Virus record (IMG/VR): IMGVR_UViG_3300010224_000001 | Location: 224,001-288,000 of that record | From: a virus | DNA: 64,000 nucleotides | Strand: one strand, 5' to 3' | Shown: positions 8,663-60,062 of the stretch, one piece after another | Position numbering within the stretch: the stretch's first letter is position 1 | How the letters are laid out: every line of letters starts with the position of its first letter | Notes under the pieces: model-generated | What the model saw: only the letters and a program-made list of their open reading frames with translations | What the model was told of the DNA's origin: nothing | Database searches by the model: none | Translations under genes and position numbers: made by a program

Positions 8663-8669
8663 GAAACTT

Positions 8670-8867
8670 CTACTTGAATATCGCTGCGATAATCCAAGCT
8701 ACTAACGCAACAGCCAACGCAGGAATCGTCATGAACATTCTGGTTATACCACCACCCCAACGACCGTTTTCTTTAACAGGCCAATAATTCAACCATAAGA
8801 AAGCAATCACAGTTACTGCGGTAGGAATCATCCACCATGAAATCGATAACTCTAAGTGAATGTTCAT
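8670..8867 (-). CDS. small membrane protein
   Basis: 65 aa, two TM-like segments. Confidence 0.6.
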   Translation of the reverse strand: MNIHLELSISWWMIPTAVTVIAFLWLNYWPVKENGRWGGGITRMFMTIPALAVALVAWIIAAIFK

Positions 8868-9591: not shown

Positions 9592-9602
9592 ACATTTACT
9601 AC

Positions 9603-9851
9603 TTAACCATGTGCTATTTTGTTCTGATAATCATTAGAGAACACATGCGGTTCACCAATCGATTTACGAGCCTGTTCAATTAGAGCATCTACGTTATCGT
9701 AATCGATGTAGTAGAAGGTTTGACCGTCTTTAACGCGATGTCGTGGCAACTTCTCTAAGTCTTTACAGAGTTTAATCAACGCGTCTTTAGCTGTAGTATC
9801 TGTAATTGGGAATTGGCCTTCCCCTGCAAAACTATCATTACTGAAACACAT
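9603..9851 (-). CDS. hypothetical protein
   Basis: start at MCFSND after GGAG SD. Confidence 0.55.
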   Translation of the reverse strand: MCFSNDSFAGEGQFPITDTTAKDALIKLCKDLEKLPRHRVKDGQTFYYIDYDNVDALIEQARKSIGEPHVFSNDYQNKIAHG

Positions 9852-10016: not shown

Positions 10017-10691
10017 TCAACCTTTTGCTACTAGTGTAAACTCAACAGGTTTGCCATCTGGTAAGAATACACTCTCAGCGTAGGTGAACATGTAAAACTT
10101 GTCAGCAGGATCCCATTTCTCATCATCCATTTTGTACATTGCAAACACTAACTCGTGAGTAATGTGTAAACAACGATTGGCTAACTTGGAGAACTCAGCA
10201 CTGACAATGATGTTACCGTAGGAGTAAGTAGTACCTTTATCCCACGAGAACGACATTGGCTTTTCTGGAGCATAACTCCATTTATCACCAGGCTTGGCTT
10301 TCTTGTATCGTTCAGTTATACCAGCGTCTTGCTGACCTGGATTAATTTTGAAACCACGATACAGCAATGGATGATTCGGAGGACGTTGAATCGATTCAAA
10401 GACTTTTTTAGCTTCTCGAAGTTTATCTAAGAGACTGTAATCAGTAACAGACACCCACTGATCAACAGCTTGAAGAAGTTCTTTGTGCTGCAACATCTTT
10501 TCAACGATCTTCATGTCTACATCTTCTTTCTGGAATGCCAGTTGAGGCGTGTATCCAAAAAGTTTTATTAAGCGCATCAGAATTTTCTTCTTCCACTCAG
10601 CTTCTTTGTAGACTTCGTTGAAGTTTGCTTCTTTCTCTAGACTGACAGAATTATCTGTAATCCAGTCTATATAAACAGGTTTAGTCGTCAT
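10017..10691 (-). CDS. putative ADP-ribosyltransferase-fold protein
   Basis: R-S-E type signature: LLYRG, MSFSW, YAESV. Confidence 0.45.
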   Translation of the reverse strand: MTTKPVYIDWITDNSVSLEKEANFNEVYKEAEWKKKILMRLIKLFGYTPQLAFQKEDVDMKIVEKMLQHKELLQAVDQWVSVTDYSLLDKLREAKKVFESIQRPPNHPLLYRGFKINPGQQDAGITERYKKAKPGDKWSYAPEKPMSFSWDKGTTYSYGNIIVSAEFSKLANRCLHITHELVFAMYKMDDEKWDPADKFYMFTYAESVFLPDGKPVEFTLVAKG

Positions 10692-10752: not shown

Positions 10753-10917
10753 TGGTGGGACGTTCCTAGATTTGAACTAGGGACCTCGATCTAGTTTAGA
10801 TGGAACCTGATTAGGGTTCTGCCTTTAACCACTCGGCCATACCTCCTAACGGAGATAGAGGGATTCGAACCCTCGGATCTTTGGTTGATCGCGCTCTAAC
10901 CGCTGAGCTAAACTCCC
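10753..10917 (-). ncRNA. tRNA-scaffold RNA 2 (permuted Ser-like tRNA nested via its variable arm)
   Basis: outer GGGAGTT/AAC(G)TCCC-ACCA; insert 10792-10886 has T arm, GTTA-closed acceptor, D arm, anticodon arm. Confidence 0.9.
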
Positions 10918-10938
10918 GGATACTTCTACTACAATGTT

Positions 10939-11110: not shown

Positions 11111-11128
11111 ATGTACTACTTTGAAACT

Positions 11129-57431: not shown

Positions 57432-58901
57432 TTAGTCAATACCTTCAAGAGCACGAACGCAAACGTCCTCTTCGAATTTCTGACGCCATTCACGACGACC
57501 TTCGTTCAACCACAGGCGGTGTCCCGGACCTGGAGTAAAGAACGAATACAAGCTGTTCTCGTTAATAGCATCATACACTTCGAGGTTACCGTTTTCATCT
57601 TCACGGCAACGCACCAGACCCGACAAGGATTTCTTACCAAGATCGGATTTCGGCTCTTTCAGAACACGTTTCCAGCCGCCGTCACGGAACTCAGCAATAA
57701 CCTTCATGCTGAAGCTAAACCAGTCGCGGCTACCATCGTTAGCGATACCGCCACCGCAACCCAACAGGAAATTGTCAACGCACCAGCCTTTATCGACAGC
57801 ACCTTTAATGACAGACTCGAACGACTCTACGTTGATACCGTCACCATACAGCGCGCCAACGGCCCACGGCAGATTACGATAACCAGCGTCATTCGGAGTC
57901 GAACCAAAAGTCTCTTCCAGCCAGCCTAACACTTGCGCCAGCTTAGTAGTTGGGTCACCTGAGTCAGGACGAGTCACAAGGCGAGCACCGCAGTTAAGGA
58001 TTTCGTCCTTGAACTTCGGAATGAACTCCCTTACGAAACGTTCATCATCGTAGGTATCAGGAACAGCAGAAGCCACAGGAATACCAATACCGGCTTTGGC
58101 ACGAGCCGCCACACGGTGCAGAAGTTCCATAACCATCTGCATAGCACCGAAGTCATCTTTTGCTTCAGCATTAGAATTCAAGCACATGGTGGTGTGCTCG
58201 GTAGCTACAACAGAACTAGTGCGAGGTTTACCGGTGTTGTAGAGACGCTTAATGTACCCATTAGCGCGTCCACAATCGCTACCTTTGAAGATTGCCGCGT
58301 GCGCCATGCCTTTGAGAACAGGTGTTTCGTCCGGAGAATCTGCACCACGATCACCAAAGAAGTGTACGAAGTAATCAAGCATGGCCATGTTACCGCCAGT
58401 CATCTTGAAATACTTAGCAGCCACTTTACGCATATAGCGGCAAATCGAAGCAGTCGTCGACATCGACCAGACCGTCGATTGAATCACTGGCTCAAAATAC
58501 GGAACCAGCCATTTGACTTGTTCGTCTTCATGAGTAACAAGAAGAATCGGTGTTTGTGGTTTAACGATACGACCTTCTTCCACACCAAAGAAAGTAAGGG
58601 GAATGCGACCACCGTAAACACGGAGGATGTATTCCCAACCTTCACGGTTGAAAGTATAACCTTGCTCAGTGACTTCAACTTCTGCTTCGTCAATCATCCA
58701 CTGCTCGAGTCGCGCCGTAGCAAACACATGCGAAATAAAGGTTTGACCCATTGCGACGATTTCATCAGTAAACCACGTTTTCTTACGCGGCACTACTGCT
58801 GATACCAGTCGCTTAGATTTCTTAGGCATCTGATAGACGTGGTCGAACTTGTAGGTGTCACACCAGAGGATGATATTGAAAGGTTTAATAAGTTCTAACA
58901 T
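57432..58901 (-). CDS. nadV: nicotinamide phosphoribosyltransferase
   Basis: DTYK..H, FGDRG, ATEH, RPDSGDP, GDGI, K.SLSG. Confidence 0.9.
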   Translation of the reverse strand: MLELIKPFNIILWCDTYKFDHVYQMPKKSKRLVSAVVPRKKTWFTDEIVAMGQTFISHVFATARLEQWMIDEAEVEVTEQGYTFNREGWEYILRVYGGRIPLTFFGVEEGRIVKPQTPILLVTHEDEQVKWLVPYFEPVIQSTVWSMSTTASICRYMRKVAAKYFKMTGGNMAMLDYFVHFFGDRGADSPDETPVLKGMAHAAIFKGSDCGRANGYIKRLYNTGKPRTSSVVATEHTTMCLNSNAEAKDDFGAMQMVMELLHRVAARAKAGIGIPVASAVPDTYDDERFVREFIPKFKDEILNCGARLVTRPDSGDPTTKLAQVLGWLEETFGSTPNDAGYRNLPWAVGALYGDGINVESFESVIKGAVDKGWCVDNFLLGCGGGIANDGSRDWFSFSMKVIAEFRDGGWKRVLKEPKSDLGKKSLSGLVRCREDENGNLEVYDAINENSLYSFFTPGPGHRLWLNEGRREWRQKFEEDVCVRALEGID

Positions 58902-58967
58902 GATAATTGAATCCCAATTATTTACGTCACCAGTGAGGGACTGGTAAGCCCGTTCTTGTTTGTGGTA

Positions 58968-60062
58968 TTAGACGAAGTACTCAACCATATCTGGATGGTC
59001 GTCGTACATAATCTCTTTAGCGCTCAGGATGTGGCCAGTCGGAATCCAATCCACGCCGTTATTTGGCAGCCAAGTTGCTTTCGCATCATCGCCACCTTTA
59101 GCACGAGGCGGATTACCATGATCATCACGCGGTTCCAACTTGAAGTAGAAACCATGAGTGACACGAGGGATACCGTTATTGCGCGCTGGGTGATCAAACA
59201 CATGTTGCTTACGCAGAGCAAGCCGCAGCGTTTTCTCAGATACACGCAAATTGGTTTCTTCGTAGATTTCCTTAATCACTGAATCAAACAGCGACAAGTT
59301 TCTCTCTTTGAAACCACCTGGTAATGCACGGCAACCATAACCAGGACCATGTTCATTTGCACGAGTCACAGTCAGGATATGTCCAGCACACTCAATAATC
59401 GCATCCACACAAATGAAGCTGAGCGTATCCTGGTAGGGATAGTCTTTGAACTTCTCTGTCTCGCTAAGGTAATAGCGATAATCACGCTGTGCGTTCGTAT
59501 CGAACTCACGGTGTTCCAGGAAGATCTTCATCTGCGGTGGCAGGTGTTGATCTAAGAGTATACTGTTGCCAAGCTTTTGCTCGTTAGCGAACCACTCATC
59601 GCGCAGACGAGTAGCGTCGATATCAACCTGAACACCCAAATCACGACGTTTCCATTGCGGGAACTTCTTGAGATAGTAAGTAGTCTGATCTTTATCTTGA
59701 CCGTACAGCGTTACGTTAGAATCATGAATACCGTTAGGTACTGCAAATTCATACACGTGTCGCTGTACCTCTGACTCCCAACGTGCTTCCTTGTAAAGAT
59801 TATCAAACAGAGGCACAATCGAATAGTTACTCGTGAAAGTCGCGAGCACATGTTCGAGCACACGTTTACGTTCGATAAAATCAAAAGGATTCTTGTTGGA
59901 CTTACGACGGTTCGCAGATCCAATCAGAATAAGCAAGTGGGTATTCTCTTTTGCCATTTCTTTGAGCATGCGAACATGTTCATTGTGCAGCATAGAGAAA
60001 CGAGCAATTACCACAGCTAAAGTTTTACCACTAAAGTTTTGACTGCTAGTTACAATTTGCAT
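58968..60062 (-). CDS. bifunctional NMN adenylyltransferase / Nudix hydrolase (NadM-Nudix, NatV-like)
   Basis: ARF..LHNEH, IGSAN, NPF, ALPGGF, E..EET, GGDDA, DDH. Confidence 0.9.
   Translation of the reverse strand: MQIVTSSQNFSGKTLAVVIARFSMLHNEHVRMLKEMAKENTHLLILIGSANRRKSNKNPFDFIERKRVLEHVLATFTSNYSIVPLFDNLYKEARWESEVQRHVYEFAVPNGIHDSNVTLYGQDKDQTTYYLKKFPQWKRRDLGVQVDIDATRLRDEWFANEQKLGNSILLDQHLPPQMKIFLEHREFDTNAQRDYRYYLSETEKFKDYPYQDTLSFICVDAIIECAGHILTVTRANEHGPGYGCRALPGGFKERNLSLFDSVIKEIYEETNLRVSEKTLRLALRKQHVFDHPARNNGIPRVTHGFYFKLEPRDDHGNPPRAKGGDDAKATWLPNNGVDWIPTGHILSAKEIMYDDHPDMVEYFV

Follow-up and report, generated by a model that had tools for sequence, protein, structure and literature searches.

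Scaffold 2 of a giant soil phage as a probable non-decoding tRNA mimic: a tRNA-like shell around a rotated, sealed class II tRNA body

Does a short locus in the tRNA gene cluster of a giant soil phage hold two degenerate tRNA genes side by side, or a single RNA in which one tRNA-shaped body is set inside another, and what would such an RNA do? The locus, here called scaffold 2, is one 165-nt unit at 10753-10917 on the minus strand, on which all of its features lie. Coordinates refer to the window, the whole 64,000-nt stretch analysed, which corresponds to bases 224001-288000 of the 322,570-bp virus record IMGVR_UViG_3300010224_000001 (G000). This record bears direct terminal repeats and encodes a homologue of the nuclear shell protein of phages (phrog_4795, E 3.7e-22; a chimallin-like open reading frame, ORF) as well as, far from the window, an RtcB ligase.

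The explanation that fits best, held here at a probability of roughly 0.7, is that scaffold 2 constitutes a single gene whose product is a stable, non-decoding tRNA mimic composed of two tRNA-shaped bodies, an RNA that most likely imitates tRNA and reads no codons. A preliminary description of the locus had proposed a serine-like class II tRNA body that is rotated, sealed at its acceptor, attached through its variable region and left with an exposed anticodon arm. This observation is borne out overall, through an ARAGORN cloverleaf, nearest relatives among the tRNA-Ser and a conserved core. The proposed segments all lie on the minus strand as written, from AGAT at 10880 to ATCT at 10798, and the proposed span of 10792-10886 is exactly the 95 nt between CGATC (10891-10887) and GATCG (10791-10787) of an outer tRNA-like shell, the parts of which are the following.

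10911-10917, minus strand: 5' strand of the outer acceptor, GGGAGTT; pairs 7/7 with 10757-10764 if G10761 is bulged, with an ensemble probability (P) of 0.55-0.95
10893-10908, minus strand: outer D arm, 4-bp stem and 8-nt loop
10887-10891, minus strand: 5' strand of the outer anticodon stem, CGATC (strand a); 5/5 Watson-Crick pairs with 10787-10791
10792-10886, minus strand: cargo, 95 nt between the outer anticodon-stem strands
10787-10791, minus strand: 3' strand of the outer anticodon stem, GATCG (strand d); AGGTC follows directly, likewise in 9 of 11 units of the shell family
10765-10786, minus strand: outer variable loop AGGTC and T arm CCTAG / TTCAAAT / CTAGG
10753-10764, minus strand: 3' strand of the outer acceptor, AAC, bulged G10761 and TCCC, then ACCA

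The shell has no anticodon and its ACCA end is encoded. Its CGATC/GATCG register is the same as in the other 10 shell units, and the shell-end pattern occurs four times in the window against 0.00 expected by chance. The cargo consists of the segments below, together with two further 6-nt strands, AACCAA and AAACTA.

10877-10880, minus strand: AGAT (strand b), 5' half of the proposed tether, complementary to 10798-10801
10858-10874, minus strand: inner T arm GAGGG / TTCGAAT / CCCTC; all 5 pairs kept in 5/5 sequences, 3 pairs changed on both sides
10840-10857, minus strand: inner acceptor TATCTCC / GGAGGTA with loop GTTA (10847-10850); 7/7 paired, ensemble P 0.88-1.0
10821-10837, minus strand: inner class II D arm, 3-bp stem and 11-nt loop, with TG (10838-10839) just before it; gap-free alignment with four other phages, 2/3 pairs changed on both sides
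10803-10819, minus strand: inner anticodon arm GAACC / CTAATCA / GGTTC; 5/5 stem, 7-nt loop, U33
10810-10812, minus strand: nominal anticodon AAT, with C37 at 10809
10798-10801, minus strand: ATCT (strand c), 3' half of the proposed tether

Read along the RNA, the cargo runs from the T arm through the 3' acceptor strand, the GTTA loop, the 5' acceptor strand and the D arm to the anticodon arm, rather than in the canonical order of a tRNA (acceptor, D, anticodon, variable, T, acceptor), and a cloverleaf emerges only once the pieces are re-joined. When 10846-10792 is placed ahead of 10886-10849, ARAGORN recognizes a 92-nt class II cloverleaf with stems of 7/7 (one G-U), 3/3, 5/5 and 5/5 and a 4-bp extra arm, as the preliminary description had expected of the re-permuted sequence, and a direct join without the loop strands gives an 80-nt call. 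ARAGORN finds no gene in the cargo in its native order, and none of 500 dinucleotide shuffles of the join receives any tRNA call.

The re-joined body belongs with the class II tRNAs for serine by its 3-bp D stem, its long D loop, the arm at the variable position and its nearest relatives: among 1433 tRNAs, a comparison set of ARAGORN calls on collected DNA that is enriched for class II tRNAs, the 29 closest to the inner 5' and 3' parts are all tRNA-Ser. In the same comparison, the phage's own tRNA-Ser(tga) scores 31, against 47 for the ARAGORN call that overlaps the unit. G73 is the discriminator of tRNA-Ser, and a G occupies the discriminator position, the first letter of the sealing loop, in all five phages that carry this core. 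Other features depart from a working tRNA. The acceptor strands are joined by GTTA in place of a free 5' end and a free 3' NCCA end, and the loop CTAATCA, which had been described correctly together with its nominal AAT, has U33 but C37, where the anticodon loop of a canonical tRNA carries a purine. As judged from its sequence, the inner body as encoded is neither chargeable nor able to decode, because its amino-acid end is sealed, position 37 is a C and AAT matches no serine codon.

Nested unit or tandem tRNA genes

Two adjacent degenerate tRNA genes, as in a dimeric precursor, would place one tRNA at 10850-10917 and a class II tRNA-Ile(AAT) at 10757-10846. This reading draws on program calls, since ARAGORN reports a second tRNA, a 90-nt tRNA-Ile(aat) at 10757-10846, and the Rfam tRNA model (RF00005) gives 33.5 bits at 10850-10917 and 30.5 bits at 10757-10846 with a cut-off of 29; moreover, the local hairpin ATCTA-AAC-TAGAT could act as the variable arm of the second tRNA. 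The true tRNAs of the window, however, score 52-67 bits with the same model. Each tandem acceptor stem is merely 5/7 paired, whereas the nested arrangement pairs 7/7 in the inner acceptor and 7/7, with the bulge, in the outer one; the first tRNA would be without a variable loop, and in the second, 7 nt past the variable arm would be left unpaired. The nested fold has an energy of -50.6 kcal/mol and the tandem fold one of -37.8 kcal/mol, which is 12.8 kcal/mol worse. Both nested acceptor helices are kept in the minimum free energy structure of scaffold 2 (-53.0 kcal/mol), and the ensemble that gives them the probabilities listed above assigns the tandem acceptors a P of 0.

Comparison with other junctions and other phages points the same way. 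The control comprised junctions in viral contigs with a class II D arm within 19-25 nt of a preceding T arm; among the 121 listed matches, acceptor strands that are cross-complementary at 7/7 positions occur in none and at 6/7 positions in 4. Within scaffold 2 the junction is a 4-nt loop, while neighbouring genes of the cluster lie about 19-25 nt apart with a shared GTAGTA-like motif, and CCA is encoded by 6 of the 8 ordinary tRNAs of the cluster, while the inner 3' strand runs into GTTA. Furthermore, the same 54-nt core occurs in related units of four phages for which a tandem-tRNA reading is impossible. Two tandem genes are accordingly held to be very improbable. The tRNA-Ile(aat) at 10757-10846 is a chimera of the 5' two-thirds of the inner body and the 3' third of the shell, so that the locus is a trap for annotation, where ARAGORN and Rfam yield a spurious tRNA-Ile(AAT) together with another, weak tRNA.

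Shell family and conserved core

A scanner for shells retrieved 11 units, five in G000, four in G001 (323,678 bp, GC 57%) and two in G006 (315,190 bp, GC 56%), the latter two records having been scanned whole, and all of the units lie inside tRNA clusters. The scanner itself demanded pairing (at least 6/7 in the acceptor), so that the variety of pairs alone counts as evidence, and this variety amounts to 2-5 pair types per stem position. In every one of the 11 units, 1-2 nt bulge from the 3' acceptor strand and the end is ACCA; the cargoes measure 56-101 nt. The family layout, which scaffold 2 shares, comprises a bulged 7-bp acceptor, a 5-bp stem after position 26, the cargo, an AGGTC-like loop and the T arm. 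The nuclear shell protein homologues of G001 and G006 are distant, at 24-27% identity.

Within the cargo, the 54 nt at 10821-10874 (T arm, sealed acceptor, TG and D arm) align without gaps to G001, G006, G009 (310,654 bp) and L353 (313,315 bp). Across the five phages, all 75 pair cells hold standard pairs, and 9 of the 15 pairs have changed on both sides; in the inner acceptor, all 7 pairs are kept and 4 have changed on both sides. None of 500 shuffles reaches these statistics, and slid registers pair at 56% at most. In the last core scan, whose pattern had N at all stem positions except two invariant T-stem G-C pairs, which were fixed, all four matches had perfect stems, and a covariance model of the core scores 80.6 bits in G009. 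The first two letters of the sealing loop, GT, are invariant in the five phages. At the level of sequence comparison, the sealed acceptor, the T arm and the class II D arm thus have direct support.

The anticodon arm has a different distribution. The related units of G001, G006, G009 and L353 have the same shell and the same sealed core as scaffold 2, but in all four the D arm passes after 2-3 nt into the shell anticodon stem, which doubles as theirs, and there is neither an inner anticodon arm nor a tether. Scaffold 2 is the only unit with a complete inner cloverleaf, and its anticodon arm would be a lineage-specific addition or retention rather than a conserved working part. The proposal that scaffold 2 arose separately from the neighbouring scaffolds 3 and 4 also stands, as the inner modules of those two have class I D arms of 4 bp and their opening at the anticodon, in contrast to the class II D arm of scaffold 2 with its 3-bp stem and 11-nt loop.

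No match to the array was found among GenBank phages with blastn in distant mode, and a flanking ORF and the chimallin-like ORF, used as anchors in viral contigs, led to no relatives; tblastn with the chimallin-like ORF gave one weak match in a Bacillus phage. Searching the exact shell-end pattern returned 0 loci, whereas a looser version returned 58, among which L007 alone has a D-arm-bearing 5' strand at insert distance and most others are ordinary tRNAs. The DNA of scaffold 2 compared with five jumbo phage records gives short T-arm or D-arm matches only. A metagenome scan for the D arm together with CTAATCA found two loci, both of them one bacterial tRNA-Ser 5' fragment and not relatives. 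The shell candidate at L241 proved to be a false positive made of two tandem paralogous tRNAs, and because of it cross-pairing alone was not accepted as proof. Cargo of the scaffold 1 type was considered as a synteny marker and set aside, the alignment being too weak for orthology.

Other tRNA-like arrangements occur as well. In record G008 (122,743 bp), an anticodon-less outer tRNA at L168 (minus strand, about 2476-2610) encloses a complete tRNA-Lys(CUU) that has a CCA of its own; as in scaffold 2, a tRNA is set in the anticodon position of a shell, but this one is normally ordered and has free ends and CCA. Directly upstream of it lie a two-headed tRNA mimic and a permuted-tmRNA call by ARAGORN. 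Two-headed mimics of this kind, consisting of a shell and a rotated elbow without a bulge, occur commonly in viral contigs across a wide range of sizes (L073, L093, L103, L107, L115, L123, L134, L144, L178, L188 and others), and so do short tRNA-like genes that lack an anticodon arm but have the acceptor, D and T arms (for instance L081, L091 and L098). In addition, many viral contigs (about 10 loci, including L288, L191, L212 and L216) share a conserved tRNA whose anticodon-stem strands are separated by a 49-nt insert, without bulge or ACCA. In the G006 clade, the shells are followed by two odd tRNA-like genes with irregular loops, called by ARAGORN as tRNA-His(atg) and tRNA-Phe(aaa) (L090 9117-9200 and 9214-9287; L353 636-805, minus strand).

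Attachment of the inner body

How the inner body is held by the shell depends on GATC-type repeats that occur on four strands, namely CGATC (a), AGATC (b), ATCTA (c) and TAGATCG (d). The preliminary description implies the pairings a:d and b:c, which are in register with the other ten shells and in which AGAT and ATCT form a tether. An exchanged fold is also available, in which a:b makes a 4-bp stem with a 7-nt loop (GATC-AACCAAA-GATC) and c:d a 5-bp stem with a 3-nt loop (ATCTA-AAC-TAGAT, using 10789-10793). The shell would then acquire an anticodon-like hairpin and the inner body a native-looking extra arm, with the inner body placed in the variable region of the shell, its variable arm an intact hairpin and the chain break just past that arm.

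The nearest-neighbour model disfavours the family-consistent tether: the ensemble probabilities are 0.017 for a:d, 0.009 for b:c, 0.96 for a:b and about 0.2 for c:d, and the exchanged fold has the lower energy, by 1.0 kcal/mol at 37 °C and by 1-2.3 kcal/mol across the six settings, differences that lie within the error of an energy model that also ignores tertiary contacts. As for the AGAT/ATCT tether as originally proposed, the complementarity exists, but with an ensemble P of about 0.009 and a competitor of nearly equal energy, no computed result shows that it forms. The family-consistent fold is moderately favoured here, the exchanged fold is a possibility of lesser weight, and a mixture or another fold takes up the small remainder. 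Both folds have in common a sealed acceptor, a free anticodon arm and attachment through the variable region.

The near-equality of the two folds raises the idea of a four-strand switch, by which the RNA would flip its cargo between the anticodon loop of the shell (a:d with b:c) and its variable loop (a:b with c:d), exposing either internal loops or the 7-nt AACCAAA loop and a native-like variable-arm hairpin. The small energy differences given above and the full complementarity of all four pairings agree with such a switch; it rests, however, on a single sequence, palindromic GATC content makes chance alternatives easy, and no other unit of the shell family displays it. A switch is considered quite unlikely.

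Possible role, likeness to known RNAs and neighbourhood

Taken as one nested mimic, scaffold 2 may be pictured as follows. Its outer body would be the conserved shell of a small RNA family residing in the tRNA clusters of phages of about 310-324 kb that encode a nuclear shell protein homologue, and the RNA would be cut from the tRNA transcript by tRNA-processing enzymes, as is suggested by the position of the shells in tRNA clusters. The inner body would be a rotated serine-type class II tRNA with a sealed amino-acid end, hanging on the shell by its variable region, either with AGAT/ATCT stacked on the shell anticodon stem or with the four strands exchanging partners. Its job may be to show tRNA surfaces, namely the elbow, the class II core and the stack of sealed acceptor and T arm, to some host or phage protein that binds tRNA, in the manner of the tRNA-like domain of the bacterial Y RNA YrlA. 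Comparison of the predicted structures identifies the sealed acceptor/T stack and the class II D arm, carried on a tRNA shell, as the conserved part. The earlier suggestion that the free loop is bait for anticodon nucleases is possible in this lineage and is not a conserved role; it is weakened by the four related phages that keep the sealed core without an anticodon arm.

Several results weigh against this picture. Besides the weak tRNA calls and the energy model's preference for the exchanged fold, the anticodon arm and the tether occur, among the five core-bearing phages, in G000 alone. The fold z-score of the whole unit is only -2.17, and 5 of 200 shuffles fold equally well. On the protein side, no TROVE/Ro60 domain was detected in G000 at E up to 1, and TROVE is also absent in G001 and G006; a phmmer search with the TROVE ORF of the 480-kb G004 against all ORFs of at least 100 aa in G000, G001 and G006 reached a best E of 0.53 (3.7 in G000); and the arrays have no protein neighbour in common. 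Finally, none of the 12 listed runs carrying the sequence, each with a small share of it, is an RNA run.

Known RNAs provide partial parallels. The permuted tRNA genes of Cyanidioschyzon merolae, which mature via a circular intermediate to working tRNAs with the help of the splicing endonuclease, likewise encode the 3' half first and join the acceptor ends by a short linker; in scaffold 2, unlike those genes, the flanks pair into another tRNA-like body, and C37 and AAT on a serine body argue against decoding. In the engineered tRNA scaffold, a cargo replaces the anticodon loop while the acceptor, D and T arms are kept, which gives processing and stability. Scaffold 2 likewise has its cargo in the place of the anticodon loop and keeps those arms, but it is natural, has a bulged acceptor and carries a cargo that is itself a tRNA look-alike. 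Allo-tRNAs combine a serine-type body with an anticodon of the Ile codon box, as does scaffold 2, and Mukai et al. (2017; PMC5389517) describe allo-tRNA(UAU) as their most abundant group, from soil and sediment metagenomes; relative to the allo-tRNAs, scaffold 2 has the ordinary 7/5 acceptor/T layout instead of 8/4 or 9/3, a Ser-type D arm, a sealed end and C37. A search of full-text literature on nested, permuted and phage tRNA-like RNAs, with most subscription journals outside its scope, found no description of such shells in phages.

The closest parallel is YrlA (RF02553), which Chen et al. (2014; PMC4201824) present as a Y RNA resembling tRNA that occurs in bacteria and mycobacteriophages and whose gene lies no more than about 4 kb from a Ro60/Rsr (TROVE) gene, both being on one strand. 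According to the same paper, the YrlA of Mycobacterium smegmatis has a closed 7-bp acceptor stem, is a substrate of RNase P in vivo and of M1 RNA in vitro, and acquires CCA. YrlA and scaffold 2 share the order of T arm, hairpin-closed acceptor and D arm, the tRNA-like letters of the T and D loops and a non-decoding nature. They differ in that no Ro60/Rsr gene was detected in G000, the Ro-binding stem is replaced by a whole ACCA-ended tRNA-like shell, a full anticodon arm is kept, and attachment is at the variable region, not at the anticodon.

These parallels bring two further explanations into play. In one, scaffold 2 would be a Y RNA whose Ro60-type partner has diverged too far to be detected, with the shell or the internal loops serving as the protein-binding handle. 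The YrlA-like topology (PMC4201824) fits this idea, as do matches of the YrlA model to the neighbouring scaffolds 3 and 4 (34 and 32.6 bits) and a TROVE ORF in G004 about 10 kb from a closed-acceptor module. Against it stand the missing TROVE domain and the unproductive phmmer search noted above, and within 5 kb there is no ORF longer than 227 aa. By regular expression, the GNCGAAN0-1G motif, which lies near the 5' end of YrlA, is absent from scaffold 2, and the YrlA model (gathering threshold 69 bits) has no match on 10753-10917 at E up to 10; the partial scores elsewhere are unspecific, because a match of 34.7 bits in L007 spans two adjacent genes. A hidden Y RNA is rated as rather improbable. 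The other explanation, by analogy with YrlA, is a double tRNA in two pieces: RNase P would recognize the sealed 7-bp acceptor with the T arm stacked on it and cut between A10847 and G10846, GTTA would be trimmed and CCA added, and strands of 71 and 94 nt would stay paired, so that the inner serine-type body would gain a free CCA end and could be charged by SerRS while tethered to the ACCA-ended shell. The M. smegmatis precedent (PMC4201824) speaks for such processing, as do the G at the discriminator position in all five phages and L168, whose complete tRNA-Lys(CUU) with CCA occupies the same place in its shell and must be cut out to work. The loop, however, holds none of the Cs of CCA, an AAT anticodon with C37 on a serine body would misread Ile codons, and decoding is not the conserved role, since the four relatives are without an anticodon arm. 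The two-piece form is judged unlikely. If it were true, it would be a phage-made, chargeable split tRNA mimic that could engage SerRS, EF-Tu or a toxin directed at long-arm tRNAs, and the intact form could still be a decoy.

TROVE was found only in G004, near a closed-acceptor RNA of a different kind. This RNA, at L063 around 1430-1740 (G004:C1 around 45,900), is a tRNA-ended molecule of about 300 nt and lies about 10 kb from a 583-aa TROVE ORF. Its 7-bp acceptor stem is closed with GAAA and accompanied by a T arm and a class II D arm, and a hairpin capped by GAAA stands in place of the anticodon loop; a relative occurs in L298. RtcB was considered as a partner of the family and rejected, being present in G000 and G005 but absent from the shell-bearing G001 and G006.

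The surroundings of scaffold 2 in the window include the following features.

10017-10691, minus strand: sole ORF inside the array, 224 aa, phrog_29772, no Pfam match
10918-10935, 11111-11128, 9592-9610 and 8663-8680, minus strand: GTAGTA-type spacer motif
57432-60062, minus strand: adjoining nicotinamide phosphoribosyltransferase and cytidylyltransferase-like genes

The predicted product of the ORF at 10017-10691, modelled from a 22-sequence alignment with a predicted local distance difference test score (pLDDT) of 82 (36 for a single-sequence model), looks like an ADP-ribosyltransferase. The 50 entries shown by structure comparison are almost all ADP-ribosyltransferases or Tpt1/KptA RNA 2'-phosphotransferases, the best Z of 6.7 (root-mean-square deviation 3.5, 131 aligned) being below the level that proves a fold, and the invariant R112, S147 and E206 fit an R-S-E triad. 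Four homologues of this ORF from Logan and ENA (P0001-P0004) have 91, 73, 64 and 62% identity to it. In G000 it begins some 60 nt downstream of scaffold 2, but its place beside the array is not conserved: in G009 and G006 the distance to the array is 16-20 kb. A GTAGTA / GTAGAAGT-like motif recurs in the spacers that precede tRNAs and shells, some 5-12 nt ahead of the 5' end; it also occurs in spacers of L007 and L090, is present in phages of 46% and 57% GC, and may be a processing signal or a promoter. General scans returned 6 promoter sites against 3.3 expected and 4 terminators against 2.5 expected, neither of them usable. In the assembled contigs of four sequencing runs, the bin 10757-10825 is without cover and no variants are called in scaffold 2, a result that does not bear on expression or on variation in the population. 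The gene pair at 57432-60062 suggests a possible NAD salvage pair.

If scaffold 2 is indeed a nested, non-decoding tRNA mimic, giant phages would build such mimics in modular fashion, from a conserved shell processed together with real tRNAs and from interchangeable cargo. Moreover, with no Ro60 partner detected, tRNA mimicry through a closed acceptor would not be tied to the Ro60/Y RNA system. Scaffold 2 would thereby offer a small, concrete RNA with which to test which tRNA-binding enzymes, synthetases or tRNA-targeting defence toxins the phage must occupy.

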